Below, piece after piece: positions 13,406-58,264 of a stretch of 64,000 bases of DNA (within the stretch, counting starts at the first letter, position 1; every line of letters starts with the position of its first letter). Below the pieces are notes generated by a model. That model was given only the letters and a program-made list of their open reading frames with translations. It made no database searches and had not been told where the DNA came from. Location: positions 39,044 through 103,043 of the forward strand of contig JAGZGX010000007.1 in assembly GCA_018367075.1 (NCBI GenBank), given 5' to 3'. This DNA is from Collinsella sp. GTDB lineage: Bacteria > Actinomycetota > Coriobacteriia > Coriobacteriales > Coriobacteriaceae. Position numbers and translations under genes: made by a program.

Positions 13406-13417
13406 TCCAAAATCTAT

Positions 13418-13458: not shown

Positions 13459-13482
13459 TGTTAGCTTGTGGCACTGAATAGT

Positions 13483-18668: not shown

Positions 18669-18753
18669 GCATTTTTGTTACCCTGACAATCGGTACGGCC
18701 TTTGCCGTATTATTGAGGCTGTTTATTGCTGTGCTTTATTCTGTTGAGGGGCT

Positions 18754-26626: not shown

Positions 26627-26836
26627 ACGTTCCTCTTTTAGGTTGCAACGCAAGCATTATAAAACGCGGTAAACGCGACGAGCCGGTGGGTTGGTTTCCG
26701 TTCTGTTTCGCGGCCTGCAACTGACAGGTGTATTTGCGGGTGCAGGCCGAGTCGCGGTCGTGCGTCGGGGGATTATACTGAGACAAGCATAAAGAATCGG
26801 CGCCCCTGTTGTGCGCCGTGGCATTAAGAGGTGCAT

Positions 26837-28099
26837 ATGGCAGAGAAACTCATTCCGCTGGAGGACGCGCAGTCGATTGTCCTGTCGCACGTTGCTCCGA
26901 CCGATCTCGTCGAGATTCCCGTGTGGCAGGCCGCCGGTCTTCCCTTGGCCGAGGACGCGGTGGCCGATATCGACATCTCGCCGTTTGCCAACAGCGCCAT
27001 GGACGGGTATGCCGTGCGCTCGGCGGACTTGGCGCAGGCATCTGGCGAGGCGCCGGTGACGCTCGATGTTATCGGACATGAGGCCGCGGGTCATGTGTTT
27101 GGGGACGCAATCGGCGCGGGCGAGACGGTCCGCATCATGACGGGCGCGCCGGTGCCCGAGGGTGCCGATGCCGTGGTGAAGTACGAGATCGTCGATGTGC
27201 TCGACGGTGACGGCAACGAGGGCTCGCGTGTGAGGTTTTTGGCGCCGGCCAAGGTGGGGAAGAACGTTCGCTCTGCCGCCGAGGAGGCCCATGCCGGCGA
27301 AGTCGTGATGCGTGCTGGCGAGGTTGTGACTCCGGCCGGCGCCGGCCTGCTGGCAAGCGCCGGTTACGCGAGCGTGAAGGTCCATGCCGCTCCGCGCGTG
27401 GGCATTATCTCGCTGGGCACGGAGCTGGTCGCGCCGGGTGAGCTGCCGGCGCGCGGGCAGATTCGCGACTCCAACTCCTCGGCGCTGATGGCCGAGGCGC
27501 TCGATGCCGGCGCCGAGCCCGTGTTCTACGGTATTGCGCCCGACGATGAGCAGGCGATTGGCGAGCTGGTGCATCGCGCCACGCGAGAGTGCGATTTTGT
27601 CATTACGAGCGGCGGCGCCTCGGCGGGCGATTACGACTACGTGACGGCGCTCGTCCGGCGCGAGGGCGTGGTGCTGTTCGATCGCATCTCGATGCGTCCG
27701 GGCAAGGCCATCACGTTTGGCTTGCTCGGGGGCAAGCCCTACCTAGGGCTTTCAGGCAATCCGGCCGCGGCGTATGTGGGCTTTGAGATGCTCGCCCGCC
27801 CGGCGATTCGCAAGATGCGCGGCTTTGCCGAGGGTACGCGTCCCGTGCAGCAGGCGACGCTCACGCACGGCGTGAAAAAGCGACAGCATCGCCGCTTCTT
27901 CGATCGCGCCACGGTTTTGCGCGACCCCGAGACCGGTGAGTTGTTGGTGACCGAGGCTAAGACACAGAATTCGGCGTTGCTTGGAACTATGCAGCGTGCG
28001 AACTGCCTGTTGCGTATTGACGAAGGACCGTGCGAGCTCAAGGCGGGAGATGCCGTGGACGTTGTTCGCGTCGACCTGCCCGAGGGCGCCGTGTTGTAG
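26837..28099 (+). CDS. moeA: Molybdopterin molybdotransferase MoeA.
   Basis: PFANSAMDGYAV and GGASAGDYD motifs. SD AAGAGG 5 nt before the ATG. Confidence 0.88.
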   Translation: MAEKLIPLEDAQSIVLSHVAPTDLVEIPVWQAAGLPLAEDAVADIDISPFANSAMDGYAVRSADLAQASGEAPVTLDVIGHEAAGHVFGDAIGAGETVRIMTGAPVPEGADAVVKYEIVDVLDGDGNEGSRVRFLAPAKVGKNVRSAAEEAHAGEVVMRAGEVVTPAGAGLLASAGYASVKVHAAPRVGIISLGTELVAPGELPARGQIRDSNSSALMAEALDAGAEPVFYGIAPDDEQAIGELVHRATRECDFVITSGGASAGDYDYVTALVRREGVVLFDRISMRPGKAITFGLLGGKPYLGLSGNPAAAYVGFEMLARPAIRKMRGFAEGTRPVQQATLTHGVKKRQHRRFFDRATVLRDPETGELLVTEAKTQNSALLGTMQRANCLLRIDEGPCELKAGDAVDVVRVDLPEGAVL

Positions 28100-28109
28100 G
28101 AGGAATGCT

Positions 28110-28589
28110 ATGGAGCTGAAGACATCGATCGTGACGTGCTCGGATACGCGCGATCTTGCCCAGGACGAGGCTGGAGCCGCACTCGAGGAACTTATCGAGG
28201 CACAGGGCTGGACGGTCGCCTCACATGTGGTCGTGCGCGACGACGTCAGCGAGATTGGTGATGCCATTGTGGAAGCTGCCGATGAGTGCCACGCCAATGT
28301 CGTGCTCACCTGCGGCGGCACGGGGCTTTCGATGCGAGATGTGACGCCCGAGGCGACGCGTGCCGTCTGCGACCGCGATGTGCCGGGTATTGCAGAGGCA
28401 ATCCGCGCGTATTCGATGACCAAGACGCGCCGCGCCATGCTCTCGCGCGCTATTTGCATGCAACGAGGTCATACACTTGTCGTAAACTTTCCCGGTTCTA
28501 CGAAGGCCGCCCGCGAAAGCTGGGAGGCCATAGCAGACCAGCTGGAGCATGCGGCTCAGATGACAGCTGGCGGCGGACATACCAACTAA
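28110..28589 (+). CDS. mogA: Molybdopterin adenylyltransferase MogA/MoaB family.
   Basis: LTCGGTGLSMRD and a GSTKA-like C-terminal motif. 159 aa. Confidence 0.78.
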   Translation: MELKTSIVTCSDTRDLAQDEAGAALEELIEAQGWTVASHVVVRDDVSEIGDAIVEAADECHANVVLTCGGTGLSMRDVTPEATRAVCDRDVPGIAEAIRAYSMTKTRRAMLSRAICMQRGHTLVVNFPGSTKAARESWEAIADQLEHAAQMTAGGGHTN

Positions 28590-28792
28590 GCGGTTTAACT
28601 GCGGCGGGGCGACCTGAACGGCTGCTCCGCCTTTGTTTTCCGCCGAAGCGACGCCGAGATGCACGGTAATTCGGAACTATATTCTCTGACGAGAATAATT
28701 TCTCACTATCATTATTCGCGCAGAAGTATAATCTGATTGCAGATTAAAGCCCGCGGTGGGGTACCCGGGCATAGCGTTCGAAAGGGTTGAAC

Positions 28793-29668
28793 ATGTTCGA
28801 TATGGTTTCTCGCCGCGGATTCGTTTCGCTTTCTGCTGTCGCCGCTGCCGGCCTTGGTCTTGCCGGCTGTTCGGGCAGCAAGACGTCCGAGCCGGCCGGA
28901 TCCGATGCCGGCTCCGTCAAGTCTTCCTCTAAGAAGAAGGCTGTCGAGCTGCAGGTCTTTGCCGCTAACTCGCTCGAGAAAGCTCTGCCCGAGGTTCAGG
29001 AGCTCTACACCGAGCAGACCGGCACCACGTTTGCCGACACGCAGTTTAAGGCGTCTGGCGACCTTGTCGAGCAGATGCGCGCCGGTGCCGCCGTCGACGT
29101 GCTCATCACGGCCTCCAAGGGCACCATGGACGACGCCGAAGCCGCCGAGCTCGTCGATGCCGACACGCGTGAGGACATGTTCGTCAACGACCTCGTGATC
29201 ATTCGCGCCGAGGGCTCCGATACTAAGGTCGAGGCCATCGCCGACGTCGCGAATCTGGACGGTAAGATTGCCATTGGCGACGCCAAGACCGTCCCCGCCG
29301 GCAAGTACGCCAACCAGGCGCTGGCTTCCGTGGGCCTCTATACCGGTACCGAGGGCGACGACGGCGAGTACGCGCCCGAGCTCGCCGACAAGGTAGCCCT
29401 GGCCGACAAGGTCGGCACCGCTGCGTCTTACGTCTCTACAGGCGACTGCGTGGCGGGTTTTGTCTACAGCTCCGATATCTTCCGCTACGACGGCATCGAG
29501 GAGGCCTTCGTGTGCCCCGAGGACTCGCACAAGCCCATCGTGTATCCCGGTGCCGTCGCCGAGAGCTCCGAGCACGCCGACGAGGCCAAGGCGTTTATCG
29601 ACTTTTGCCTGTCGAACAAGAAGGCCCAGAAGATTTGGGGCAAGTACGGCTTTGAGCTTTCCGAGTAG
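28793..29668 (+). CDS. modA: Molybdate ABC transporter substrate-binding lipoprotein ModA.
   Basis: Twin-Arg/lipobox signal (SRRGFVSLSAVAAAGLGLAGCS). ModA-type periplasmic binding fold motifs (FAANSL ... GDAKTVPAGKYA). Confidence 0.82.
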   Translation: MFDMVSRRGFVSLSAVAAAGLGLAGCSGSKTSEPAGSDAGSVKSSSKKKAVELQVFAANSLEKALPEVQELYTEQTGTTFADTQFKASGDLVEQMRAGAAVDVLITASKGTMDDAEAAELVDADTREDMFVNDLVIIRAEGSDTKVEAIADVANLDGKIAIGDAKTVPAGKYANQALASVGLYTGTEGDDGEYAPELADKVALADKVGTAASYVSTGDCVAGFVYSSDIFRYDGIEEAFVCPEDSHKPIVYPGAVAESSEHADEAKAFIDFCLSNKKAQKIWGKYGFELSE

Positions 29669-31179
29669 TGCGGCTTGGCGCGATAATTCCATCGTTTTGT
29701 GTTTCACTCCGTCCTTGTATTCGCTTGGAGCTTTTCGTGCTTAATAGATTCCGCATGCTTGTCGCCTGTGCTTTGACCTTCGCGCTTTGCTGGGTGCCGG
29801 GATTTGCGTTTGCCGGGGACGCCGAGGACGGGGCCCAGGTTGCTGCGACCGCTCATGGGCTTTCCTATGGAATCGAGGGTTTTGAGCGGTTGGCGAAGGG
29901 GACCGCTCGTGCCATGGAGGGCCAGCCTGAGGGCTACCGGTTTCCCGTTGACGAGGATGTGGACCTTGTAGTGGCGCCTGCTGCCGATCGCGTTGTGGCG
30001 TGGATATCGCCCAAGGCGGTCGAGAAGTATAGATTGGATCCGCAGGACAACGAGTGCGTATCGGGTCTCAAGGCCCTCGTCTGTGACCTCGACAGCGCAA
30101 ACTGCATGGGAGGTGCGCGGCTGGGGGACGTGGATCTTCCTTGGTATGTCACGGCGGAAACAACGTTTGATGCCGGCGGGTATACCTATGGCTTTGATGA
30201 GCGCGGTGCGGATGGGGACCGCTATGTGGTGATTGCATCAGCCTCGGGTGATGCCAAGGGCGGCGCGCGTTGGCTTGATAGCGCTCAAATGGTAGAGGCG
30301 TCGTCTGTCATGTTGCGGGATGAGCAAGGGCCCTTGACCTCTCTGGTCTCCTTTTTGGGCGACATCGACTATCGCCCGTTTTGGGTGTCCATTAAAACGA
30401 GCGGCCTTGCCCTGGTGATCTCCCTTGCGCTGGGCCTGTTCGCCGCGTGGAAGACTATGGGTACCTCGAGTCGCATCAAGGGCCTGCTCGACTCGGTCTT
30501 TACCATCCCCATGGTGTTGCCGCCCACGGTCTGCGGCTTTTTGCTGCTTATGCTGTTTGGTCGCTCGACCGGGGTGGGCCAGTGGCTGATTGCGCACGGC
30601 GTCTCGATTGTCTTTACGTGGCCGGCGGCGGTGATCTCTGCCGTGGTGGTATCGTTCCCCCTGGTCTACCGTACGGCGCTCGGCGCCTTTGAGAGCCTCG
30701 ACACGCAGATGCTTGACGCCGCGCGAACCCTGGGATGGTCCGAGCGTCGCATCTTTGCCAAGCTTATGATGCCGCTTGGGTGGCCTTCTATTGCTGCTGG
30801 TACGGTCCTCGCCTTTGCCCGCGCGATGGGAGAGTTTGGCTGCACGCTGTTCTTTGCGGGCAACTACGCCGGCATCACGCAGACCATCCCCATCGCCATC
30901 TATTTTGAGTGGATGGGCGGCAATACGTCGGTCGCGCTCTTCTGGGTCGTGGTCGTAATTGCGTTCAGCTTCCTGGTCATCCTGTTCATTAACATGTACA
31001 CCGCCCATTCGCAAAAGTATCGCGAGCGGGGCCTTTCCCATGCGGGGCGCAAGCAGGCCAAAGACCTCGCCGGACAGGGTGATTCGCTCGACCCGGCGGG
31101 CGGCGATGCCCTGCGAATCGATCGCGAGGCGCTGGCCGAGCTTATGCGCGATGACGCGGTTGCGAAGGGAGGTCGATAG
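29668..31179 (+). CDS. modB: Molybdate ABC permease ModB fused to a ~210-aa N-terminal extracytoplasmic domain of unknown function. The start is uncertain: GTG 29668 (coupled to the modA stop) or ATG 29755.
   Basis: The C-terminal ~260 aa are a typical ModB/CysTW permease (LDSVFTIPMVLPPTV, EAA-loop region GEFG). The N-terminal part has a signal-like MLVACALTFALCWVPGFAFA, then a Gly/Asp-rich domain with 4 Cys, in the same frame. Confidence 0.72.
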   Translation: MRLGAIIPSFCVSLRPCIRLELFVLNRFRMLVACALTFALCWVPGFAFAGDAEDGAQVAATAHGLSYGIEGFERLAKGTARAMEGQPEGYRFPVDEDVDLVVAPAADRVVAWISPKAVEKYRLDPQDNECVSGLKALVCDLDSANCMGGARLGDVDLPWYVTAETTFDAGGYTYGFDERGADGDRYVVIASASGDAKGGARWLDSAQMVEASSVMLRDEQGPLTSLVSFLGDIDYRPFWVSIKTSGLALVISLALGLFAAWKTMGTSSRIKGLLDSVFTIPMVLPPTVCGFLLLMLFGRSTGVGQWLIAHGVSIVFTWPAAVISAVVVSFPLVYRTALGAFESLDTQMLDAARTLGWSERRIFAKLMMPLGWPSIAAGTVLAFARAMGEFGCTLFFAGNYAGITQTIPIAIYFEWMGGNTSVALFWVVVVIAFSFLVILFINMYTAHSQKYRERGLSHAGRKQAKDLAGQGDSLDPAGGDALRIDREALAELMRDDAVAKGGR

Positions 31180-31182
31180 GCC

Positions 31183-32253
31183 ATGTCGCTCGTTCTGGAT
31201 ATTAAAAAGCGCTATCCCGGGTTTATGCTCGACATGCAGCTTGAGGCCGGCGAGGAGCGTGTGGCGCTGCTCGGTGCCTCGGGTTGCGGCAAGAGCTGCA
31301 CCTTGCGCTGCATTGCCGGTGTGGAGACGCCCGACGAGGGCAAGATCGTCGTCAACGGCGTGACCTTTTTTGACTCGGCGGCGGGCATCAACCTGTCGCC
31401 CCAGGAGCGCAAATGCGCCCTGCTGTTCCAAAACTATCAGCTGTTTCCCAACATGACGGTGGCCGATAACGTATGTGCCGGCGTAAAGGACGCGGGCGAC
31501 GCCGCGGCGCGTAAAAAACTTGCCGAGCGCTACCTGGGCATCTTTGGCCTAGCCGATTTTGCCGACCGCTATCCCGCGCGCCTCTCGGGCGGTCAGCAGC
31601 AACGTGTGGCGCTTGCCCGTATGGTGGCGGCTCACCCGGGCATCTTTATGTTCGACGAGCCCATGAGCGCACTCGATTCCTATCTTAAGAGCGCCCTCGA
31701 ACAGAACATGCTCGACCTGTTCGATGTATGCAACCGCACCGTGCTCTATGTGAGCCACGACATCGACGAAGCGTGCCGCCTGTGCCAGCGCATCTGCGTG
31801 ATGCACGACGGGCATGTTGAGGAGATCGGCTCCGTCGAGGACGTGGTCCGCCGTCCGCAGACGCTGGCGGCGCTGCGCCTGACGGGCTGCAAGAACACAA
31901 GCCGGGCGCGCAAGATCGGCGACGAAGAAGTTGAGGCGCTCGATTGGGGCATGACCTTTAACGTGGGTCGCGAGGTTCCCGATAATGTGGCGTACCTGGG
32001 CATTCGCGCGAGCTACTTCCATGTGGACAACCGTGCCGAGCGGGGTCGCAACAGCTACGACCTGCACGTGGCGCGCGTGAGCGATTCGCGTTTTGAGCGC
32101 CTGGTGCTGTTGGATGCGCCGCGGGCCGATGCGCCAACGCGTCTGCAGTGGAAGGTCAACAAATTGAGCGTACCAGCGGATGGGTTACCGCAAGAAGGCG
32201 AGACCCTGCGTATGCATTTTGATGCCAGCAGGATCCATCTGGTTTGTCGGTAG
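31183..32253 (+). CDS. modC: Molybdate ABC transporter ATPase ModC with a C-terminal TOBE/Mop domain.
   Basis: Walker A GASGCGKS, signature LSGGQQQRV, Walker B IFMFDEP, plus a ~120-aa C-terminal extension. Confidence 0.85.
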   Translation: MSLVLDIKKRYPGFMLDMQLEAGEERVALLGASGCGKSCTLRCIAGVETPDEGKIVVNGVTFFDSAAGINLSPQERKCALLFQNYQLFPNMTVADNVCAGVKDAGDAAARKKLAERYLGIFGLADFADRYPARLSGGQQQRVALARMVAAHPGIFMFDEPMSALDSYLKSALEQNMLDLFDVCNRTVLYVSHDIDEACRLCQRICVMHDGHVEEIGSVEDVVRRPQTLAALRLTGCKNTSRARKIGDEEVEALDWGMTFNVGREVPDNVAYLGIRASYFHVDNRAERGRNSYDLHVARVSDSRFERLVLLDAPRADAPTRLQWKVNKLSVPADGLPQEGETLRMHFDASRIHLVCR

Positions 32254-32454
32254 CGCCGGGTAATGCCGTCGGGGATATAAGTCTCGGCGGCTTTGTCTTG
32301 CCGTTCGCCGAATGAAGGATGACAAACTCTTATCAACACAGATAATTATTTATTAAACGGCGGCACACGACGCTGTCGTACGAATGTCAACGGTGTTCGC
32401 ATGGTCGACGACCGTTGATATAGTTGACCTTAACTTGTAAAGGAGGACGCGCAC

Positions 32455-32682: not shown

Positions 32683-33966
32683 ATGGCTGAAGAATTTGAT
32701 TTCCATCCGATGTGGGAGAGCCTCGGCATGAATCTTGCCGACCACGACATGCTGCTGGGCGCTGTGGGCCAGATGTACGGCGACATGTTCCTGACGCAGA
32801 ACAATCGCCCCAAGTCCACGTCCTACCTGGATTTTGTCGCCACCAACATCCACAGCGGCCGTATTAAGGAGATGCTCGACAAGAAGGAGGCCGGCGAGGC
32901 CACCAAGATCGTCGGCTCGTTCTGCGTGTACGTGCCCGAGGAGATCGTGCTTGCCTGTGACGGCATTCCCGTGGGCCTGTGCTCGGGTGCCGATTGGGCA
33001 ACCGATAAGGTCGAGGAGCACCTGCCGCGCAACACCTGCCCGCTTATCAAGAGCTTTGCCGGCTTTAAGCTGGGCGAGGTCTGCCCCTACATTGAGTCGA
33101 GTGACCTGGTGGTAGGCGAGAACACCTGCGACGGTAAGAAGAAAGCCTACGAGTTCTTTGCCACGCAAAAGAACATGTACGTCATGGATATTCCCAACGT
33201 GCACGACGAGTCGACGCTCGTGACCTGGAAGGCCGAGGTCAAGAAGCTCGCCGCCAAGATCGAGGACGAGTGCGGCGTCAAGATTACGCCCGAGGGCCTG
33301 AAGGCTGCCATCCACGCCGTCAATGAGAAGCGCCGCGCCCTGCAGCGCCTCGCTGCGACCCGCGCTGCCGACCCTGCGCCCATCAGCGGTCTCGACAGCC
33401 TGCTGACCGTTCAGGCCGCCTTTATGGACGACACACCGCGTCTGACCGGAGCCATCAACGATATGGCGGCTGAGTGCGAGCAGCGTGTCGAGGCCGGCGA
33501 GGGCGTGGCACCCAAGGGGACCAAGCGCATCCTGTACACCGGTACGCCCATGGCCGTGCCCAACTGGAAGCTGTTCAACCTTATCGAGAAGGCCGGCGGC
33601 GTTGTGGTAGGCGAGGAGTCCTGCACGGGCTCGCGCTACTACAAGGACCTGGTCGACGAGTCCGGCGAGACGGTCGACGAGATGCTCGATGCCATCGCCG
33701 AGCGCTACTTTAGGATCAACTGCGCCGTCTTTACGCCCAACGACCAGCGTATGAAGGACATTGTCCAGATGGCCAAGGACCTGCATGCCGACGGCATCGT
33801 CGACGTGGCTCTGCAGTTCTGCACGCTCTACGAGATGGAGTCGTTTGCCGTGGAGAAGGCCGCCGAGGAGGCCGGCATTCCGTTTATGCACATCACGACC
33901 GACTACGCCGGCGAGGACGCAGGTCAGCTGCAAACCAGGATCGAGGCTTTCTTGGAAACCATTTAG
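32683..33966 (+). CDS. 2-hydroxyacyl-CoA dehydratase / benzoyl-CoA reductase BcrC-BadD-HgdB family protein, subunit 1 (HgdA/HadB-like), 427 aa.
   Basis: Conserved Cys positions ([31 protein letters not shown]) and the overall collinearity typical of HGD-D family alpha subunits. Confidence 0.65.
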
Positions 33967-34120
33967 AGCTATCCGTCTCGGCGGCTTCCCCAGGCACCCG
34001 GTCTTGCCGTTCAAACCGTCGCTTGCGTACCAAAGTACGCGGCGCTTCTCTTTCACGGCAACCTCGGGCACCTGGGAAAGCCGTTTCCTTGGTTGGTTAA
34101 AAGGTTTGTTAAGGAGCTAT

Positions 34121-35284
34121 ATGCCGGAATATATTGAGCAGCCGTTGCCGTCCACGTTTGAGGAGTTCAACGAGCAGCGCAAGGCGGCGTTTATTCGCGT
34201 CAAGGATTACAAGCAGGCCGGTAATCGCCTGATCGGTTTTCTGTGCAGCTACACGCCGCTCGAGATTATCGATGCCGCGGGCGCCTCGAGCGTGGCTCTG
34301 TGCGGTACGTCCGATGAGGTGATTCCCGAGGCCGAGAAGGTGCTGCCGGCAAATCTCTGCCCGCTCATCAAGTCGACCTATGGCTTTGCCTACTCGCAAA
34401 AGTGCCCGTTTACGTACTTTAGCGACATGATCATCGGCGAGACCACCTGCGACGGCAAAAAGAAGATGTACGAGCTGCTCAACGAGCTCAAGCGCACGCA
34501 CATTCTGCATCTTCCGCAGGGTCGCGACCGTGCCTACGAGCGCGAGGGCTGGTACGAGGAGTGCTGCCTGCTCAAGGAGGAGCTCGAGGGCTTCTACGGC
34601 ATCACGATTACCGACGATGACCTGCGCGCTGCCGTCCGTCGTCGCAACCGCTTGCGTGCGGCCCAGCTCGAGATGTTTGCGCTGCAGGCCAACCAGCCGG
34701 CGGCCATGAGCGGCGTCGACCTGATGAGCACCATGTTTGCCGGTACGTTCAGCTTTGATATCGAGGCCTATACGCAGCAGCTGGAGCAAAAGGTCGCCAA
34801 GCTGCGCGAGGCCTATGATGCAGGCGAGCGCCCGATCGCGGCGGATGCCAAGCGCATTCTGATCACCGGCTGCCCGGTGGGCGGCGTGATCAACAAGATC
34901 GGTCGCACCATCGAGTCCAACGGCGGCGTGGTCGTGTGCATGGACGACTGCTCGGGCGAGCGCACGGCGGCCATGATGATCGACCCGGAGGCTCCCGACA
35001 TCCTTCGCGCCATCGCCGACCGCTACCTGGATATCAACTGCTCGGTCATGACGCCCAGCGACGGTCGTATGGAAAACACGCTGGCCATGTGCGAGAAGTA
35101 TCACGTCGATGGCGTAGTGGAGAGCGTGCTCCAGGCGTGTCACACCTTTAACGTGGAGAGTGCGCGCATGCAGGAGGCTGTCGAGGGTGCGGGTATTCCG
35201 TATATGAAGATCGAGACCGACTACAGCAACGGCGACATGGGCCAGATCGAGACGCGCATCGCCGCCTTCATCGAAACCCTGTAG
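34121..35284 (+). CDS. HGD-D family protein, subunit 2 (HgdB/HadC-like), 388 aa.
   Basis: [31 protein letters not shown] and DDCSGERT motifs. The track ORF 33761..35284 is trimmed to MPEYIEQPL, which has the SD AAGGAG. Confidence 0.65.
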
Positions 35285-35334
35285 GACAAATGCGGCAAAG
35301 GGATAGTTGCTTTGCCGCATAGAAGGAGGATGCC

Positions 35335-36099
35335 GTGGTTGGCATTGGTATCGACATAGGCTCGACGGCCGCGAAGGCTGCAGTGGTGGAGACGGACGGC
35401 GCCATTGCGTGGACCTGCGTCATGCCGACGGGGTATTCGTCGGTCGATGCGGCCGAGCGCTTGCGCGGCGAGCTCGCTGCAGCCGACTATGACGTGGCTG
35501 CCGACGACGTGCGCGTGATCGCGACCGGCTACGGCCGTGTCGCCGTGCCCTATGCGCACAAGGTCGTGACCGAGATCACCTGCCACGGCACCGGTGCCGT
35601 GCGCCTGTTTGGCGATCACGGCACGGTGATTGACGTGGGCGGCCAGGACACCAAGGTCATTCAGCTTAAAAGTGGCCGCGTGGCCAAGTTCGCCATGAAC
35701 GACAAGTGCGCTGCCGGTACGGGGCGCTTTTTGGAGATCATGGCCGACCGTCTGGGTATTTCCCAACAGCAGATGGCCGACCTTGCGCGTTCCGGTGAGC
35801 CCACCAAGATCAGCAGCATGTGCACGGTGTTTGCCGAAAGCGAGGTCATCAGCCTGATCGGTCGCGGTGAGCCGCGCGAGAACATTGCACGTGGCGTGAT
35901 CGACAGCGTGGTCTCGCGCGTGGCGACCATGGCCGGGCAGGCCGCGGGCGCCCCGTACTACCTGACCGGTGGCCTGTGCGAGAACGCCTTCGTGGTGGAG
36001 CGGTTGGGCGAGCTGCTGGGGTCGCCGGTGACCACCTCGCCCCAGGCTCGCTTTGCCGGAGCGATTGGCGCGGCGATTCGCGCACAGGCGCTCAATTAA
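35335..36099 (+). CDS. CoA-substrate-specific enzyme activase (HgdC/HadI-type ATPase; BcrAD_BadFG family).
   Basis: GIDIGSTAAKAAV, ITCHGTGA, VIDVGGQDTKVIQL and DKCAAGTGRFLE actin-fold ATPase motifs. Two Cys for the bridging [4Fe-4S]. Confidence 0.78.
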   Translation: MVGIGIDIGSTAAKAAVVETDGAIAWTCVMPTGYSSVDAAERLRGELAAADYDVAADDVRVIATGYGRVAVPYAHKVVTEITCHGTGAVRLFGDHGTVIDVGGQDTKVIQLKSGRVAKFAMNDKCAAGTGRFLEIMADRLGISQQQMADLARSGEPTKISSMCTVFAESEVISLIGRGEPRENIARGVIDSVVSRVATMAGQAAGAPYYLTGGLCENAFVVERLGELLGSPVTTSPQARFAGAIGAAIRAQALN

Positions 36100-36169
36100 T
36101 GCATCCGCCGTAGGCTCGCATTCATGCGTATACTGGGAGAAAATGATTGACCGATGAGAGGAGGTATCG

Positions 36170-37219
36170 ATGGCTGACGATCAGATTAAGCTTACGTCTA
36201 TGACTGCCGCGAGCGGTTGAGCCGCTAAGTTGGCTCCCGGAGCCCTCGCCCAGGTCCTGGGCGATTTGCCAAATGTGCATAACGACAACTTGCTCGTGGG
36301 GTTCGATACCTCCGACGATGCGAGCGTCCTTCGCGTCGGCGATAACCTGGGCCTCGTTCAGTCCGTCGACTTCTTCCCGCCGATGGTCGACGACCCGTTT
36401 CTGTTTGGCCAGATCGCCGCGGCCAATTCGCTGTCGGACATCTACGCCATGGGCGGGCGGCCGAGCCATGCCATGAACCTGCTGTGCATTCCCAGTTGCC
36501 TGGGCGTCGAGGTCGCAGGTCAGATTCTGGCGGGCGGCGCCGACAAGTGCGTCGAGGCGGGTTGCTCCATCGCGGGCGGCCACACCATCAACGACGACGA
36601 GCCCAAGTACGGCCTGTCCGTGAGCGGCTTTGTCGCGCTCGATCGTATGCTTGCCAATAGCGGCGCGCGCGTGGGCGACGTCCTGTTGCTGACCAAGGCG
36701 ATCGGCTCGGGCATCATCACCACGGCCATTAAGGGCGAGCTTATCGAGCAAGATGAGGCCGCGGCCATGTTTGACTCGATGCGCACCCTCAACGAGGCTC
36801 CGATTCGTTTGGCCGAGGGACTTGAGCTTCACGGCTGCACCGACATTACGGGCTTTGGCCTGATCGGGCATGCGTGCGAGATGGCCGAGGGCTCGGGCGT
36901 GCAGATTGAGCTTGCGTCGGGGGCGGTGCCGCTCTTTGATCAGGTGCTTGACATGGCGCGTCTGGGCATTATCCCCGCGGGCTCCTACCGCAACCAGGAC
37001 TTCTTTGGCCCGCGCGTGACAGCTGACGATGACTTGGAGCCGGGAATGCTGGATGCGCTGTACGATCCGCAGACCTCGGGCGGTTTGCTAATTGCGGCGC
37101 CCGCGGCGGATGTGGATGAGCTTGCGCGTCGTCTGCACGCTGAGGGGCGCGTTGCCGCCACAATCGGCCGCGTGTGCGAGCCGGTGCCGGGCGGTCCTGC
37201 TGTTCGCGTTGTTCGCTAA
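36170..37219 (+). CDS. selD: Selenide, water dikinase SelD. It is a selenoprotein, with the in-frame UGA at 36218..36220 being codon 17 (Sec).
   Basis: MADDQIKLTSMTAASG-U-AAKLAPGALAQVL matches the SelD N-terminal TxxxxxxG(C/U)xxK motif, with Sec at the position of E. coli Cys17. SD GAGAGGAGG 5 nt before the ATG at 36170. The track begins the ORF only at the TTG at 36230. Confidence 0.88.
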
Positions 37220-37280
37220 CCCGCACGTTTATGTAACTGTTTACCGTTCTCTAGAACGGTTCTTTCGAAAGGAATTTACT

Positions 37281-37907
37281 ATGTCTACCAAGATTGAAGT
37301 CAATGCCATGGGCGATGCCTGCCCGCTGCCCGTCGTCAAGACGCTCAAAGCTCTGAAGCAGCTCGATGGCGAGGGCACCGTCGTGACCTCGGTCGATAAC
37401 GAGACCGCCGTCAAGAACATCTCCAAGATGGCGCAGGAGAAGGGTTGCACGGCCTCGGTCGAGAAGGTTTCTGACGCCGAGTGGCACGTGACCGTGGCGA
37501 CCTCTGGCGCCGTTGCCGTGGCCGATCCCGAGCAGGATGGCGCTGTCTTCTGTAATGCCAGCGCCGGCAAGGGCAAGCTCGTCATTTCCGTCTACACCGA
37601 CTGCATGGGCCGCGGCGACGATGAGCTGGGCCACAAGCTCATGAAGGCCTTCATCTTTGCCGTGACGCAGCAGGAGGAGCTGCCCGCGACTATGCTGTTT
37701 TACAACGGCGGTGCCAAGCTCACCGTCGAGGGCTCGCCGGTGCTCGATGACCTGAAGGGCTTGGCGGAGCAGGGTGTCGAGATTCTCACCTGCGGTACCT
37801 GCCTGGACCACTTTGGCATTAAGGACCAGCTTGCGGTGGGCGAGGTCACCAACATGTACGTGATCGTGGAGAAGATGGAGCAGGCCGTGCGCGTCGTGCG
37901 CCCGTAG
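37281..37907 (+). CDS. yedF: Selenium-metabolism protein YedF (TusA/SirA-like N-domain plus DsrE-like C-domain).
   Basis: N-terminal NAMGDACPLPVVKT (TusA CPxP motif) and a C-terminal DsrE/DsrF-like region. The track ORF is trimmed to MSTKIE with SD GAAAGGAA. Confidence 0.7.
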   Translation: MSTKIEVNAMGDACPLPVVKTLKALKQLDGEGTVVTSVDNETAVKNISKMAQEKGCTASVEKVSDAEWHVTVATSGAVAVADPEQDGAVFCNASAGKGKLVISVYTDCMGRGDDELGHKLMKAFIFAVTQQEELPATMLFYNGGAKLTVEGSPVLDDLKGLAEQGVEILTCGTCLDHFGIKDQLAVGEVTNMYVIVEKMEQAVRVVRP

Positions 37908-37926
37908 CGTATTGGTTGGAGTTGCC

Positions 37927-38178
37927 ATGAGGGAGAAGCGCCCGGCGCTTGTCATCACGTTTCCCACCACGGCGGCCGCCATGGGTTGCGAGTCCCTGTG
38001 CATCGAGCGCGGTCTTCCCGGGCGGACGATTCCCGTGCCCGGGGAGGTCGCTGCCGGCTGCGGTTTGGCGTGGAAGGCGTTGCCTGTCGATGAGGAGCTG
38101 CTGCGCGGCGAACTCGCCGCGGCGGGCGTTCCCACTGAGGGCTATACCGTGATTAATATGTGGGAGGTCGTGCGATGA
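37927..38178 (+). CDS. DUF3343 / putative Se/S carrier protein-like small protein, 83 aa.
   Basis: Small protein with conserved Cys (ITFPTT...GCESLC...GCG). The position between yedF and a class-V aminotransferase is the typical context for this family. Its stop overlaps the next start (ATGA). Confidence 0.55.
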   Translation: MREKRPALVITFPTTAAAMGCESLCIERGLPGRTIPVPGEVAAGCGLAWKALPVDEELLRGELAAAGVPTEGYTVINMWEVVR

Positions 38179-39314
38179 TCTACCTGGATAACGCGGCGAC
38201 GACCATGCACAAGCCGCAGACGGTCATCGATGCCGTGACGCAGGCGATGTGCTCGCTCGGCAATGCTGGGCGCGGTGCCACCTCGGGTGCGCTCGATGCG
38301 GCACGTACCATCCACGGCTGCCGCGCCAAGCTTGCGCGCTTGCTGGGCTGCCCGCGTGCTGACCATGTTTGTTTTACGCCCAACTCCACCGCGGCGCTCA
38401 ACACCGTCATCAATGGCGTGGTGCGCCCCGGCGACCGTGTGGTCACAACGGTGCTCGAGCACAACTCCGTACTGCGTCCGCTCAACCGCCTGGCGGCAGA
38501 GCAGGGTGTGACGGTTGAGCATGCGGGCTGTGATACCAACGGCGTGCTCGACTACGACGAGCTCGAGCGGCTTGTCACGCCCGGTACGCGTGCTGTGGTG
38601 GTGACGCACGCCTCCAATGTGACCGGCAACGCGGTCGACATTGCGCGCGTGGCTGCCATCGCGCATGCGGCCGGCGCGCTGGTGATCGTCGATGCTTCGC
38701 AGTCTGCCGGCACGGCGAAGATTGACATGGATGCCATGGGGCTCGACGTCGTGTGCTTTACCGGTCACAAGGGGCTCATGGGTCCGCAGGGGACCGGCGG
38801 CCTGGCCGTGGCGGAGGGCATTGACGTGGCTCCGTGGGCCATGGGCGGCACGGGCGTGCACAGCTTCGATGCGCTGCAGCCGCTTGGGTGGCCCACGCGC
38901 CTTGAGGCGGGCACGCTCAACGGTCATGGCATCGCGGGACTTTCCGCTGGTCTCGACTTTATCGAGGCCCAGGGTGGGGTCGAGGCGATTGCTGCCCACG
39001 AGCGTGCGCTCGCTGATCGCTTCCTTGCCGGTGTGCGCAAGATTCCGGGGATTAAGCTCTACGGTGCCTTTGACCAGCAGGCGCGCTCTGCGATTGTGTC
39101 GCTCAACGTAGCCGATATCGACTCTGCCGAGATCTCGGATGCGCTCATGCAAGGGTGGGGGATTTCGACGCGCCCCGGCGCCCATTGCGCCCCGCTCATG
39201 CACCGTGCGCTGGGGACCGAGCGCCAGGGCGTCGTCCGCTTCTCGTTTGGGTATTTCAACACTACCGAAGAAGTCGACACGGCTATCGATGCTCTGTGCG
39301 ATTTAGCCTGCTAA
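38175..39314 (+). CDS. Cysteine desulfurase / selenocysteine-lyase-like class V aminotransferase.
   Basis: MIYLDNAATT start, PLP-lysine region FTGHKGLMGPQGTGGL, and HCAP near the C-terminus (active Cys). SD GGGAGG. Confidence 0.75.
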   Translation: MIYLDNAATTMHKPQTVIDAVTQAMCSLGNAGRGATSGALDAARTIHGCRAKLARLLGCPRADHVCFTPNSTAALNTVINGVVRPGDRVVTTVLEHNSVLRPLNRLAAEQGVTVEHAGCDTNGVLDYDELERLVTPGTRAVVVTHASNVTGNAVDIARVAAIAHAAGALVIVDASQSAGTAKIDMDAMGLDVVCFTGHKGLMGPQGTGGLAVAEGIDVAPWAMGGTGVHSFDALQPLGWPTRLEAGTLNGHGIAGLSAGLDFIEAQGGVEAIAAHERALADRFLAGVRKIPGIKLYGAFDQQARSAIVSLNVADIDSAEISDALMQGWGISTRPGAHCAPLMHRALGTERQGVVRFSFGYFNTTEEVDTAIDALCDLAC

Positions 39315-39337
39315 AGCTGCTAGACCGTTTATACTTG

Positions 39338-39370
39338 CGGGACGGGTGTATTTGCCCGTCCCGTTTTTGT
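39338..39370 (+). terminator. Intrinsic terminator ending the selenium operon.
   Basis: CGGGACGGG-TGTATTTG-CCCGTCCCG followed by TTTTTGTTT. Confidence 0.75.
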
Positions 39371-40841: not shown

Positions 40842-40918
40842 CGGGACGTGGCGCAGTTTGGTAGCGCGCCTGCTTTGGGAGCAGGATGTCGCAGGTTCAA
40901 ATCCTGTCGTCCCGACCA
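40842..40918 (+). tRNA. tRNA-Pro (anticodon UGG) with encoded CCA.
   Basis: Acceptor CGGGACG/CGTCCCG, anticodon loop TTTGGGA, T-loop GGTTCAAAT, discriminator A plus CCA. Confidence 0.92.
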
Positions 40919-40924
40919 TATCTT

Positions 40925-40998
40925 GCGGGCGTAGTTCAATGGTAGAACCCCAGCCTTCCAAGCTGATGACGCGGGTTCGATTCCCGTCGCCCGCTCCA
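40925..40998 (+). tRNA. tRNA-Gly (anticodon UCC) with encoded CCA.
   Basis: Acceptor GCGGGCG/CGCCCGC, anticodon loop CTTCCAA, T-loop GGTTCGATTCC, discriminator U plus CCA. Confidence 0.9.
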
Positions 40999-41079
40999 TA
41001 GGATAGTTTTAACGGCTTTGGCTCTATTTGGTGCCAGAGCCGTTTTCATATACATACCGGGGACCCCACATCCCCTCCT

Positions 41080-41147
41080 AAGTTGCGGTGAAATACGGAC
41101 TGTTTTCCGGCTTTTATGGCCCATGTAGTCCGTATTTCACCGCAACT
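41080..41147. repeat. Copy C of the 68-nt palindromic repeat, immediately downstream of tRNA-Gly.
   Basis: CCTCCTAAGTTGCGGTGAAATACGGACTG ... TAGTCCGTATTTCACCGCAACT. Confidence 0.8.
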
Positions 41148-41311
41148 ATTTGTAAGGTTGGATTTTGATGCCGTTGGGAGGGTCGTAGCGACCGTCTACC
41201 GAGAGTGGAAATATTTTTTGAAGCTCTGACCTGCGACGTCAAGCTTTTGGTCAGCTTTTGGCAAGGCCTGCGGACGGAAGCATGCGATAGCGTAATGGTA
41301 TTCTCTCCGCC

Positions 41312-42334
41312 GTGATGGTTATGGGGTTGGCCATGCTCGATAAAGGCAAACATTTTCCGCAGTCATATGCAAGAATGCTATTCTCGGCCGTTGGAATTCA
41401 TCAAGATGGACAGCTGCTTATAACAATTGATCCTTGGGATGAACGCCGTGCGCGTGAGCTTATGCAGGAAGAGCTCATGCTTCGTCTTTACAACCACGTG
41501 TATGCGGATCCGGTCTATTGGAATAATCTTGGGGTTGAAGATCGCATCTTTCAGCTGGCATCCGCTATTGCGGTCGTTGAACCGGATGCTGTGTTTTGCG
41601 GATCGACAGCAGCGCTGCTCTACGGCATCGGCTCGGCGTATACGCTTCTGGATAAAGTGCAAGTACTGCTGCCACGGTCTACAAGGCGTGATACGTATGA
41701 GTTCGTTGAATACAAGCGCTGGCGGGTGGGCGAAGTGTGGCGTCTCGGTCTGTTTACGCTGACGGATCCGTATCGAACGGTTGTTGATATCGCTCGAACG
41801 AGCGCCTTTCGTTATGCGCTGGGCTATGTCGATGGCTTGGCCCGTGAGTACGATGTCGAACGCGAAGAGCTGCGGGCATATGCGCAGGCAAATTGCCGAG
41901 GGTTGCATGGCATCGCGCGTGCTTTTGACGTTTTTGAGCATATGGATGGCAGGTCAGACAATGGCGGCGAGTCCGAGGCGAGAGCAGCGATGATTCTCGC
42001 TGGGGTTGCCGCGCTTGAGCTTCAAGTTGAGATACCGCGACCAGGAAACGCTGGCTATTATCTAGCAGATTATGGCTGGCAGATGCCAGACGGCTCATGG
42101 ACGCTGGCAGAGCTGCATGGGCTGGGTAAGTTTGAAGACGAAGCTCAAAATGATCCGGAGCAAGCGGCGGCAAAAACCTATCGAGCGGCCCTCATGCGCG
42201 ATGCGAACCTTCGCGCCATGGGCCACAACGTCATTCATTTCAAACTCTCGGACACCTACGAAGTAGAATCGTTCGGTGCCATGATGCGCGGTTACGGTAT
42301 TCCGACAACAAAACCCTACGCCGACTCCCGATAG
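41312..42334 (+). CDS. Hypothetical protein, 340 aa. Tentatively an AbiEi-like N-terminal region plus a DUF559/Vsr-like endonuclease-fold C-terminus. Lower GC than its surroundings.
   Basis: The C-terminal block VEIPRPGNAGYYLADYGWQMPDGSWTLAELHGLGKFED...RDANLRAMGHNVIHFKLSD resembles the DUF559 pattern (yyLDfaW...aEyDG...R...L...Gw.VlRft). Bracketed by repeat copies C and D. A/T-rich codon usage unlike the flanks. Confidence 0.35.
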   Translation: MMVMGLAMLDKGKHFPQSYARMLFSAVGIHQDGQLLITIDPWDERRARELMQEELMLRLYNHVYADPVYWNNLGVEDRIFQLASAIAVVEPDAVFCGSTAALLYGIGSAYTLLDKVQVLLPRSTRRDTYEFVEYKRWRVGEVWRLGLFTLTDPYRTVVDIARTSAFRYALGYVDGLAREYDVEREELRAYAQANCRGLHGIARAFDVFEHMDGRSDNGGESEARAAMILAGVAALELQVEIPRPGNAGYYLADYGWQMPDGSWTLAELHGLGKFEDEAQNDPEQAAAKTYRAALMRDANLRAMGHNVIHFKLSDTYEVESFGAMMRGYGIPTTKPYADSR

Positions 42335-42361
42335 AGAAATCGTTCGCAGCCAACCTTCAAT

Positions 42362-42430
42362 AAGTTGCGGTGAAATACGGACTATCGAGGCCTTTAAAGG
42401 CATGAAACAGTCCGTATTTCACCGCAACTT
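42362..42430. repeat. Copy D of the 68-nt palindromic repeat, between the islet ORF and the convergent PIN toxin gene.
   Basis: AAGTTGCGGTGAAATACGGACT ... CAGTCCGTATTTCACCGCAACTTAGGAGG. Confidence 0.8.
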
Positions 42431-42475
42431 AGGAGGGGATGGGGCTGAGGGGCGGGCGATGCCGTTGCCTGCCGG

Positions 42476-42952
42476 TTAGTGGCGACCGTGGTGGCGGAGC
42501 TTGTCGATGGTGGAGTCGGTGCCGTGTCCGCGGGCGTCGGTGCTTCGGCTGCGGGCGTCGGCGGCGGTTTGGCGCTGGCGGCGGTAGTCGATCATGCCTT
42601 GGATGATGGGCTTGCCAAAGCTCACGACATCATCGTTGTAGATGGCGGTTCGGGCTGCGAGGAGGCAGTCGGTAAAGTCCATATGGGTCTTGCCGAAGAG
42701 TTTGACGGCAAGGGCGACAACGGTGGGCTCGTCGACCATGACGTCATCGAGCAGCCTTTTCATGGCCGCAGCAATTTCAACGCGGGGAACCTTATAGACG
42801 TCGCGCAGCGTGACCACGACGCGCGTGATGATTTCGGGGTAGACACGTGCGGTGCGCGTGGCGATGACCTTGGCAGCGCGCGGTGACAGGACCTCGTCGT
42901 CGTCAAGCAGGTAGCGAAGGATGACGGTCTCGTCGATGATGGTGCTACTCAT
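42476..42952 (-). CDS. PIN-domain (VapC-like) toxin candidate, 158 aa.
   Basis: N-terminal IIDETVILRYLLDD (first acidic motif) and DFTDCLLAARTAIYNDDVVSFGK (the PIN DxxDaliaAxA...T.D.dF block). 8-nt overlap with the upstream antitoxin gene. Confidence 0.5.
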   Translation of the reverse strand: MSSTIIDETVILRYLLDDDEVLSPRAAKVIATRTARVYPEIITRVVVTLRDVYKVPRVEIAAAMKRLLDDVMVDEPTVVALAVKLFGKTHMDFTDCLLAARTAIYNDDVVSFGKPIIQGMIDYRRQRQTAADARSRSTDARGHGTDSTIDKLRHHGRH

Positions 42953-43268
42953 GGATATCTACTTCCTCGGGACCCAAAACCGACTCGTCGCTTTCTGTGG
43001 CTAGGTATTCAATCCAGGCATTGCGCTCCTCGGAGCGGCGATTGGGGTCCCCATATGCTTTGAGCAGTCCATAGGCGGACGTGCCGTCCTTGGAGCGCAC
43101 GGCGACCGGCTGAAAGGGGAGCTTGCGCATCAAAATACTCTGCGCGACAAATAGACGGACAGCCTCGGCGAGCGATGTGCCCATGGCGTCGTAGAGACGC
43201 TCGGCATGCTGCTTGTCTTCCTCGCGAATGCGCACCTGCAGGATGGCTCGTTTTTGAGTCGATGACAT
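42945..43268 (-). CDS. RelB/DinJ-family type II antitoxin, 107 aa.
   Basis: RIREEDKQHAERLYDAMGTSLAEAVRLFVAQSI is the RHH RelB/DinJ N-domain signature. SD AAGGGAGG. Its stop overlaps the PIN gene start. Confidence 0.65.
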   Translation of the reverse strand: MSSTQKRAILQVRIREEDKQHAERLYDAMGTSLAEAVRLFVAQSILMRKLPFQPVAVRSKDGTSAYGLLKAYGDPNRRSEERNAWIEYLATESDESVLGPEEVDIHE

Positions 43269-43696
43269 CACTGGCCTCCCTTAATGAGCGTGCAATTTGA
43301 ATAGTCAAATACAACATCGGCTAATAATAGCCAATCTTACAACCACTACTTTATTGCACTAGAGTAATTGAGTGTAAACGATATTACAAACGTACTACAT
43401 CTTTCAGAAACGAGCGTGAAATCTCCCTTGGATGTACGCATGTAATACACTCACCTTTATAGCTTCTAGAGAATAATTCCAACCTGCCAAAACCCCTGCA
43501 ATACACCCGTATTGCAGGGCCTATGCTCAAGTTTGCCCCCTGCAACTGCGTATATTTAACCTGTATATCGTTGGAGAAACTCTACCGAGTGCATGTTTCG
43601 CCGCATGCATTCGATTCGTCGATGCCGGACCACGGGCGGTCCGGGGCAACGTCGACAGGGTCTCTCCGGCATGGGATTCAGGAGGGAGTGAACAAC

Positions 43697-58225: not shown

Positions 58226-58264
58226 GAGCGCTTGTCCCTGCTGATTAGGAAAGAAGTGATTGAC

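Follow-up and report, generated by a model that had tools for sequence, protein, structure and literature searches.

In a window of 64,000 nucleotides from a Collinsella sp. (contig JAGZGX010000007.1; the window is the whole stretch of DNA that was analysed, with a GC content of about 62%), a block of seven forward-strand genes places two double-cubane cluster proteins (DCCPs) and an activase directly upstream of genes for selenium supply. The block begins with DCCP1 (32683-33966), a full-length DCCP of 427 aa, followed by DCCP2 (34121-35284), a shorter paralogue of 387 aa, and by the activase (35335-36099, 254 aa), an ATP-dependent electron donor of the DCCP-R/HgdC type. Next come selD (36170-37219), encoding a selenophosphate synthetase with selenocysteine, yedF (37281-37907), encoding a full-length selenium-metabolism YedF, a DUF3343/Se_S_carrier gene (37927-38178; 83 aa from its ATG, the gene call in identical contigs, with the longest open reading frame (ORF) starting at 37912), and csd (38175-39314, longest ORF from 38160), encoding a class-V pyridoxal phosphate enzyme of the EF2568 family. 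Gene content, order and coordinates had been given in the same way in the initial annotation of this DNA and are confirmed here from ORFs and profile matches. The window stems from the Collinsella aerofaciens group. Dozens of Collinsella assemblies encode proteins with 98-100% identity to DCCP1, a scan of genome contigs returned Collinsella only (80 loci, 89-100% identity), and the 90% identity cluster of DCCP1 counts about 34,000 member sequences.

By sequence, both large proteins are double-cubane cluster proteins, paralogues of one family with a predicted [8Fe-9S] cluster. DCCP1 and DCCP2 score 489.5 and 488.4 bits against the NF040772 profile (cut-off 350), and DCCP1, which also matches PF06050 (HGD-D) with 404 bits, aligns over residues 6-427 with residues 3-421 of 7YYL_C (423 bits) and likewise end to end with PDB 6ENO. 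DCCP2 aligns with residues 63-420 of 6ENO only (263 bits), because an N-terminal segment of about 40 residues is missing. The two proteins are 38% identical, and each keeps the full set of seven cluster cysteines at aligned positions (Cys 81, 100, 119, 149, 314, 347 and 380 in DCCP1; Cys 42, 61, 80, 110, 277, 307 and 340 in DCCP2), with spacings of 18/18/29/164/32/32 and 18/18/29/166/29/32, respectively. The published DCCP motif CX19CX18-19CX29CX166-170CX32-34CX32C (Haft 2022, bioRxiv 10.1101/2022.07.06.499078) fails on both when read literally, since some spacings differ by 1-3 residues. The activase, which starts with GTG behind a GGAGG ribosome-binding site, matches PF01869 (BcrAD_BadFG) with 185 bits and TIGR00241 with 231.5 bits (cut-off 125.4).

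The initial annotation had labelled this module an HgdAB-like radical dehydratase with an HgdA/HgdB-type pair, and had offered a non-dehydratase, double-cubane member working in selenium or molybdenum cofactor handling as the second of two readings. The presence of the Pfam HGD-D domain and of a BcrAD_BadFG activase would indeed be in keeping with a true 2-hydroxyacyl-CoA dehydratase of the HgdAB, HadBC or FldBC type or with a benzoyl-CoA reductase. However, profile comparison places the large proteins in the double-cubane clade and not with HadC, BzdN or BcrC. As candidates for HgdAB/HadBC/FldBC-type dehydratases they reach 104 and 88.5 bits with HadC (cut-off 700) and, for DCCP2 alone, 19.4 bits with HadB (cut-off 750); as candidates for class I benzoyl-CoA reductases they reach 87 and 76 bits with BzdN (cut-off 454) and 65 and 63 bits with BcrC (cut-off 421). 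Both belong to one family instead of forming an alpha/beta pair, and no CoA-transferase, CoA-ligase or acyl-CoA dehydrogenase gene was found within 10 kb on either side in Pfam-annotated identical contigs, in agreement with the earlier remark that no CoA-transferase lies beside the module. Because the NF040772 model is passed, the dehydratase models are failed and the cysteines are kept, the dehydratase label is wrong; on these profile data a dehydratase or benzoyl-CoA reductase is effectively refuted, whereas the double-cubane assignment stands on the NF040772 scores and on the end-to-end alignment of DCCP1 with 6ENO and 7YYL. What the Collinsella DCCPs have in common with the dehydratases (HgdAB/HgdC, HadBC/HadI, FldBC/FldI) and the class I benzoyl-CoA reductases is the PF06050 fold and the "archerase" logic of an ATP-driven one-electron activation; they differ in falling far short of the curated models, in lacking alpha/beta differentiation and in having no CoA-ester genes nearby.

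The DCCP/DCCP-R system of Carboxydothermus hydrogenoformans (6ENO, 7YYL) is alike in family, in the seven cysteines and in the HgdC-type ATPase alongside, and it includes YjiM/YjiL of Escherichia coli according to Haft (2022). Collinsella differs from C. hydrogenoformans in having two diverged paralogues, one of them N-terminally shortened, for one activase, and in embedding the pair in a selD-yedF-DUF3343-csd block, whereas the nearest metagenomic relative of the C. hydrogenoformans DCCP (L090, 73%) has no selenium gene in the 10 kb upstream. Neither dithionite nor Ti(III) citrate reduces the cluster of DCCPs, which requires the ATP-driven partner, and the natural substrate of these proteins is given as unknown (PMC9351452).

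The four downstream genes belong to families of selenium metabolism. SelD matches TIGR00476 with 342 bits (cut-off 125) and its gene carries an in-frame TGA (36218-36220) at the catalytic N-terminal position, where ASGUAAK stands against AAGCAAK in Parolsenella and CAGCGAK in an Atopobiaceae genome (L089). It is from this alignment of the TGA with cysteine codons that we read a selenocysteine, not from the RNA fold: in the search for a selenocysteine insertion sequence (SECIS) in selD, hairpins were seen 3' of the UGA, yet they fold no better than shuffled sequences (z = -1.66). YedF, which joins a TusA-like domain at its N-terminus to a DsrE-like one at its C-terminus (PF01206, PF02635), covers model positions 1-194 of TIGR03527 with 214 bits (cut-off 110), and the small DUF3343 protein matches PF11823 with 64.2 bits (cut-off 25). 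The csd product is a probable cysteine desulfurase or selenocysteine lyase, judged from its 418.8 bits with TIGR01977 (cut-off 377); with the narrower SclA model NF040779 it reaches 357.9 bits against a cut-off of 525. The families of EF2566 (YedF) and EF2568 have been placed "probably prior to selenophosphate synthesis" (Haft and Self, 2008, PMC2276186), and yedF and duf3343 have been named as candidates for "Se reduction and/or trafficking" (Kayrouz 2022).

The same TIGR03527, TIGR00476 and TIGR01977 trio stands together in EF2566-EF2568 of Enterococcus faecalis, within a cluster for a selenium-dependent molybdenum hydroxylase (PMC2276186), and the blocks of Parolsenella and L089 likewise adjoin yqeB, yqeC and xdhC. 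The Collinsella window differs in that it has no xanthine-dehydrogenase-family gene and, by tblastn of its 64 kb, neither yqeB nor yqeC, the DCCP and activase genes being adjacent instead; furthermore, its SelD is a selenoprotein in its own right, and selenocysteine is decoded in this organism (fdhF, selA). The claim that the block represents a complete supply chain for selenium and selenocysteine did not hold. The gene for L-seryl-tRNA(Sec) selenium transferase, selA (61396-62853, forward strand; TIGR00474 517 bits, cut-off 268), lies about 22 kb away, no tRNA-Sec was found in the 64-kb window, and no selB was seen among the window ORFs checked; selB may lie beyond the end of the window.

The seven genes from DCCP1 to csd probably form one operon. 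On the upstream side a terminator-like hairpin 3' of modC (32265-32291, forward strand; 10-bp stem with 7 GC pairs and a T-rich tail) marks a unit boundary, and the 391-nt spacer between it and DCCP1 contains promoter-like matches at 32319-32346 (10/12) and 32396-32424 (9/12). On the downstream side the end of the unit, as given earlier, could be located at a strong intrinsic terminator (39337-39364, forward strand; 12-bp stem with 8 GC pairs and a TTTTTGTTT tail). The junctions measure 154, 50, 70, 61 and 19 nt, while in the last one the DUF3343 stop and the csd start share 4 nt, and the gap of 70 nt from the activase stop to the selD ATG, which had been stressed before, is real. The description of all junctions as short or overlapping is correct for most of them and fails for DCCP1-DCCP2, where the 154 nt hold a 94-nt hairpin and a weak promoter-like match (9/12) at 34106-34135. 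An Rfam scan of the 391-nt leader and the 154- and 70-nt gaps gave no family at gathering score, the sole match at E ≤ 1 in these spacers being a chance hit on the terminator, and alignment of the leader with those of Parolsenella and the Coriobacteriaceae genome UMGS609 (L083) revealed no convincing conserved block.

The 94-nt hairpin directly follows the DCCP1 stop (33985-34078, forward strand, -54.4 kcal/mol), and an inner hairpin (34023-34042) was flagged as a weak terminator. Other Collinsella strains and Parolsenella carry a second copy 3' of DCCP2, and the gap between DCCP2 and the activase is 50 or 155 nt in different strains because this second copy is absent or present. Instances lie at 12603-12697 of locus L001 and at 11288-11382 and 12627-12721 of L084. 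Compensatory changes affect 10 of the 28 pairs among five sequences, and a covariance model (R1) run over 1.24 Mb found the hairpin only after the DCCP genes of Collinsella and Parolsenella. The element may be an RNA structure specific to this operon, which stabilises the mRNA, marks a site of processing or causes attenuation, or else a repeat in the DNA with palindromic symmetry.

We then compared the neighbourhoods of DCCP1 homologues in other Coriobacteriia (identities are to DCCP1). Parolsenella massiliensis (88%) has the identical seven-gene order with other outer flanks, in which yqeC (TIGR03172, 162 bits), yqeB (TIGR03309, 352 bits) and xdhC are found, the former two next to the block. 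In L083 (89%) DCCP1 is directly followed by selD-yedF-DUF3343-csd, and in Thermophilibacter immobilis (82%) the order is csd ... yedE-tusA-DUF3343-DCCP1-DCCP2-(ABC transporter)-activase, beside glycine reductase genes. L089 (68%) has a divergent activase and then DCCP1-yedF-csd-DUF3343-selD, with yqeC, yqeB, modABC, moaA and moaC on the 5' side. In another Atopobiaceae genome (72%) DCCP1 adjoins glycine reductase selenoprotein genes, and two Actinomycetota genomes (about 60%) have DCCP and activase alone. Since the orders in Parolsenella, L083, Thermophilibacter and L089 all differ, the link between DCCP and selenium genes has been kept through at least four gene arrangements. An activase and HGD-D subunits of Slackia heliotrinireducens appear, without comment, with the highest-ranking STRING partners listed for YedE, YedF and DUF3343 (Lin 2015, PMC5322559, Table 1).

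Several of these loci contain additional genes. In a Collinsella-like genome (L036) a five-gene ABC transporter of the Opp/Nik type (11445-16722) lies between DCCP1 and DCCP2, and in Thermophilibacter (L088, 12528-15273) a nitrate/sulfonate/taurine-type ABC transporter with an NMT1/SsuA-like binding protein lies between DCCP2 and the activase; its ATPase is SaoA-like, yet under the cut-off. A glycosyltransferase gene of L036 (18884-20113), considered as a candidate SenB, has no TIGR04348 match and encodes a generic GT4 enzyme. From the L036 insertions it follows that the block tolerates inserted genes, and selD may be served by a separate promoter in that genome. In the Atopobiaceae loci L085 (8198-19051) and L088 (16243-21317) the DCCP genes adjoin genes for a C_GCAxxG_C_C protein, an SLAC1/TehA-like transporter and the glycine reductase selenoprotein cluster (GrdE, GrdB, GrdA, TrxB and Trx).

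The neighbourhood survey was extended by a metagenome scan led by the C. hydrogenoformans DCCP as query, which yielded 80 DCCP loci (50-73% identity to the query, GC content 0.29-0.70) whose neighbours were assessed by tblastn, ORF inspection and Pfam. A selenium/sulfur carrier gene is present in 38 of the 80 loci and in 14 of the 23 that have full flanks; after dereplication it is found in 15 of 27 DCCP clusters at 70% identity and in nine of 15 at 60%. As an internal control we used the distance from the DCCP core: the density of carrier genes per 100 kb is 31.6 at 0-1 kb, 6.2 at 1-2.5 kb, 1.7 at 2.5-5 kb and 0.5 at 5-10 kb, i.e., about 60 times higher within 1 kb than at 5-10 kb. The adjacency of DCCP and carrier genes is more than chance. 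Among 450 neighbouring ORFs within 3.5 kb of the core the most frequent Pfam family was PF11823 (25), followed by Aminotran_5 (16), TusA (at least 7), DsrE (at least 6), YedE (at least 4) and SelD-type AIRS (at least 2, with SelD detected by tblastn in three loci), and no other metabolic enzyme family was recurrent in this set. Counted by partner, DUF3343 was found 25 times, Csd and YedF 16 times each, YedE five times and SelD three times, and in 21 loci the DUF3343 gene lies between DCCP and activase.

Recurrent architectures are Csd-DCCP-DUF3343-activase, at times with a divergent DCCP2-type gene, DCCP-activase-YedF, and YedE-TusA-(DUF3343)-DCCP-activase; one locus (L093) has a full Collinsella-like set, and in two more (L122, L133) SelD is adjacent and genuine on profile check, so that selD lies physically in the DCCP block in Collinsella, Parolsenella, L083, L089, L093, L122 and L133. 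Sampled Csd proteins of L157, L110 and L124 reach 438-462 bits with TIGR01977 (cut-off 377), sampled YedF proteins of L107, L141 and L154 pass TIGR03527, and the YedE of L098 scores 504 bits with TIGR04112 (cut-off 200). A Dorea sp. (Lachnospiraceae, Bacillota) has a DCCP2 gene (543 bits) divergent from Csd-DCCP1-Se_S_carrier-activase (Csd 444 bits with TIGR01977, DCCP1 512 bits), genes for FdhF, SelD and Grd being absent up to 10 kb away, and DCCP2-type orthologues in such Dorea-type loci are 46-47% identical. As the pairing recurs across loci and phyla, the Collinsella arrangement is one instance of a widespread module of DCCP and carrier. The tie to selD, yedF, DUF3343 and csd, for which a survey of gene neighbourhoods had been suggested, is thus kept through rearrangements as well as across phyla.

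Two variations on the carrier were seen in the metagenomic loci. A conserved 78-aa ORF without Pfam match replaces DUF3343 between DCCP and activase in one DCCP clade (L146, 11270-11506; L152, 4603-4839), and the Lachnospiraceae-type DUF3343 after DCCP (L156-L168; L170, 11345-11605) ends in a conserved ...NP(R/K)RD(R/K)YC that the Collinsella protein does not have.

The gene families, the operon-like organisation and the conserved neighbourhood are observations, from which we infer a chemistry for the module. The reading we tentatively favour, as a serious possibility that falls short of probable, is that DCCP provides an ATP-driven reductive step that feeds selenium to SelD. Selenium would enter as selenocysteine, or elsewhere via YedE; Csd, acting as selenocysteine lyase, would take it up as an enzyme-bound perselenide, and it would then be handed between conserved cysteines of DUF3343 and YedF. 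The activase would spend ATP to charge the [8Fe-9S] cluster of DCCP with an electron of very low potential, and the reductive step of DCCP might then release selenide or pass it on to SelD with no need for free thiols and no escape of toxic H2Se. SelD would convert it to selenophosphate for SelA, serving the selenocysteine enzymes FdhF and SelD here and the YqeB/YqeC-dependent Mo-Se cofactor in relatives. We favour a role within selenium trafficking and ahead of SelD on several grounds. The recurrent partners are mostly pre-SelD proteins (DUF3343, Csd, YedF, YedE), SelD being a far less frequent one, and modules such as YedE-TusA-DCCP-activase are self-contained, with importer, carrier and reductase. 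SelD requires fully reduced selenium, and since H2Se has roughly the reducing strength of H2 (PMC5187540), its production needs low-potential electrons. Moreover, 955 of 970 strong NF040772 proteins occur in SelD-containing genomes (Haft 2022, bioRxiv 10.1101/2022.07.06.499078), and this nesting of DCCP genomes within SelD genomes also favours the trafficking role.

A number of observations weigh against it. The S-Se bonds of perselenides are reducible by ordinary thiols or thioredoxin, and an ATP-driven reductase is perhaps excessive. TusA, DsrE, DUF3343 and Csd cannot tell sulfur from selenium. The carrier gene is missing from 42 of the 80 metagenomic loci, many of them short contigs; about half of the sampled DCCP loci have DCCP and activase alone, and in Clostridioides difficile the DCCP (YjiM) lies apart from yedF. 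A universal adjacency of DCCP and carrier can be rejected on these grounds, together with the two Actinomycetota genomes of about 60% identity. In one strain, L036, the GT4 gene separates the activase from selD, at the junction corresponding to 36099/36170, and in the window itself the clustering could be explained without DCCP, because the selenium consumers FdhF and selA are nearby. Finally, nine methanogen DCCPs occur without SelD (Haft 2022).

Alternatively, DCCP could be the recipient and not the supplier, with Csd, DUF3343 and YedF, with or without SelD, bringing it selenium or sulfur and so building or repairing its chalcogenide-bridged cluster. Selenium could occupy the mu2 bridge, giving an [8Fe-8S-Se] cluster as a new labile selenium cofactor, while the substrate that DCCP reduces would be a refractory compound of another kind. 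The first reading of the initial annotation, in which the cofactor supply is hard-wired to the enzyme, comes near to this model, which is the chief rival, if a somewhat doubtful one. The arrangement Csd-DCCP-DUF3343-activase resembles a dedicated maturation set of the NifS type, the transporters inside the DCCP blocks of L036 and Thermophilibacter hint at an imported substrate, and in both Parolsenella and L089 the DCCP-selenium block has yqeB and yqeC as neighbours. By analogy, selD, yedF and EF2568-type genes may cluster with their consumers, as they do with selenium-consuming molybdenum hydroxylases (PMC2276186), and a selenium-bridged analogue of the cluster has been listed as a formal possibility on the strength of the SelD co-occurrence (Haft 2022, bioRxiv 10.1101/2022.07.06.499078). 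Against a recipient role, SelD is a rare neighbour (3 of 80 loci) and the frequent ones are pre-SelD proteins, no scaffold or insertase family is recurrent among the neighbours, genes of a substrate pathway are not conserved with the module, and methanogens have DCCPs without SelD. The DCCP that was crystallised is also said to have been made in E. coli with an all-sulfur cluster, without these partners, which we count against the recipient role.

The Fe protein and MoFe protein of nitrogenase are comparable in function alone: there, too, an ATPase gates the electron, the composite Fe-S cluster has a bridging chalcogenide that is labile, and a NifS-like desulfurase is encoded alongside. There is no sequence relationship, and the selenium role of DCCP is hypothetical. 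In FeMo-co, a belt sulfide can be exchanged for selenium during SeCN- turnover. That the DCCPs encoded with Csd, DUF3343, YedF and SelD hold a selenium-bridged [8Fe-8S-Se] double cubane seems to us quite improbable. If true, it would add a further selenium cofactor linked to SelD or selenocysteine lyase, beside selenocysteine, selenouridine, the Mo-Se cofactor and selenoneine, and would account for the near confinement of DCCPs to SelD-containing genomes.

The partners also allow a model built on sulfur, in which DCCP reduces persulfide, polysulfide or S(0) bound to TusA, DsrE, DUF3343 and Csd, or receives their sulfide, and selenium is associated only because these anaerobes also use it. Sulfur relay is an established role of the TusA, DsrE and class-V desulfurase families, selD and yedE are both absent from the Dorea-type module, the Csd proteins of Collinsella and Dorea fall under the SclA selenocysteine-lyase cut-off, and no selenium-specific DUF3343 clade was found by Lin (2015, PMC5322559). 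The same study, however, reports YedE only from selenium-using organisms, and the partners pass the selenium-specific models TIGR03527 (YedF), TIGR04112 (seleno_YedE) and TIGR00476 (SelD). With selD inside the block in the seven cases named above and 955 of 970 DCCPs in SelD genomes, we consider an exclusive sulfur function distinctly unlikely.

The reductive trafficking role that we favour has also to be viewed against the surroundings of the block, which are rich in genes for molybdenum and formate metabolism. As had been noted before, molybdate uptake lies upstream of the module, where moeA, a mog/moaB-like gene, modA, modB and modC occupy 26831-32253 on the forward strand. About 5 kb downstream of the block begins a formate hydrogenlyase locus that extends to about 59100. 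Its first gene encodes an FdhF-type formate dehydrogenase with selenocysteine (44290-46512, forward strand; TGA at 44707-44709 in NCARTUHGP), which, on its sequence, is a predicted local consumer of both selenium and molybdenum, followed by hydrogenase-4-like subunits, hycH (57141-57722), hycI (57722-58225) and focA (58232-59104). A PhsA-like molybdopterin oxidoreductase (59160-61343) precedes selA. About 36 kb thus hold molybdenum supply, selenium supply and the enzymes consuming both.

This setting invites the explanation that selD-yedF-DUF3343-csd is a housekeeping selenium supply for FdhF and SelD with which DCCP is not coupled, and that adjacency elsewhere stems from common regulation under anaerobic conditions or from pathways in which selenoproteins happen to take part. 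The presence of moeA, mog, modABC, the selenocysteine-containing fdhF, the formate hydrogenlyase genes and selA within these 36 kb is in its favour. DCCP genes also stand beside glycine reductase selenoprotein genes and beside selenocysteine-assisted organometallic (SAO) selenoprotein loci, as a "selenoprotein neighbourhood" effect would have it, selenium genes are absent from many DCCP loci, the C. difficile genes are not adjacent, and Haft (2022) deems pathway-level explanations likelier than new chemistry. Such a bystander role nevertheless fails to predict the roughly 60-fold excess of carriers within 1 kb, in 15 independent DCCP clusters and two phyla, the position of DUF3343 between DCCP and activase in 21 loci, the persistence of the link through four gene orders in Coriobacteriia, and the Dorea module with neither FdhF, selD nor grd in its vicinity. 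We therefore regard it as unlikely; both this and the sulfur-only model are possible and fit the data across phyla less well than the ATP-driven reduction of selenium ahead of SelD.

A link of DCCP to molybdenum is weaker than that to selenium. modABC or molybdenum cofactor genes flank the DCCP-selenium module in several Coriobacteriia, and the molybdenum genes of the window are explained as well by the nearby FdhF and the second molybdenum enzyme. Mop/TOBE (molbindin-type) genes lie directly 3' of DCCP in three unrelated metagenomic loci (L096, 11288-11509; L114, 2154-2363; L169, 6432-6635), a second hint, towards molybdate or tungstate.

The DCCP family and its ATPase, the selD/yedF/DUF3343/EF2568 set, the genome-level correlation of DCCP with SelD and the STRING entry are already known, and the earlier statement that nothing of the sort had been described has to be withdrawn in view of the latter two (Haft 2022; Lin 2015, PMC5322559). 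Of the initial interpretation as a whole, its second reading has held for the family and for the linkage to selenium, while the dehydratase label, the complete supply chain and the claim of an undescribed association have not. Haft (2022) found DCCP within 5 kb in 21 of 52 SAO loci, and YedF and DUF3343 have zero occurrences in that text. The SAO loci show the same affinity of NF040772 proteins for selenium biology as the Collinsella locus, which differs from them in having no SAO genes and in its partners being the genes for selenium supply and carriers themselves, located right beside the DCCP genes and probably within one operon with them. In the literature searched we found no description of an operonic DCCP-activase module with DUF3343, YedF, Csd, YedE or SelD, of a conserved pair of DCCP1-type and DCCP2-type proteins, or of a functional proposal for the module.

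The adjacency in Collinsella and its recurrence in unrelated anaerobes offer a lead on the natural job of double-cubane reductases. Three questions meet at this locus: the cellular job of DCCPs, the source and detoxification of selenide for SelD in anaerobes, and the role of YedF and DUF3343. Since the module is compact, conserved across phyla and brings all players together, the functions of DCCP, YedF and DUF3343 become directly testable. There may also be a bearing on microbial competition for dietary selenium, because the host is a very common human gut bacterium with a very large DCCP1 cluster.

A few further features were noted in the window. ModB (29668-31179) has an N-terminal extension of about 230 residues without Pfam match, its permease domain comprising residues 253-450. 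Between brnQ and the formate hydrogenlyase locus lies a variable segment (40842-43271) whose content differs among otherwise identical strains (L001-L003) and which here contains tRNA-Pro, tRNA-Gly, a 340-aa ORF without Pfam match (41312-42334) and a RelB-like antitoxin pair. Positions 18311-18672 encode a bacterial RNase P class A RNA (RF00010, 282 bits).

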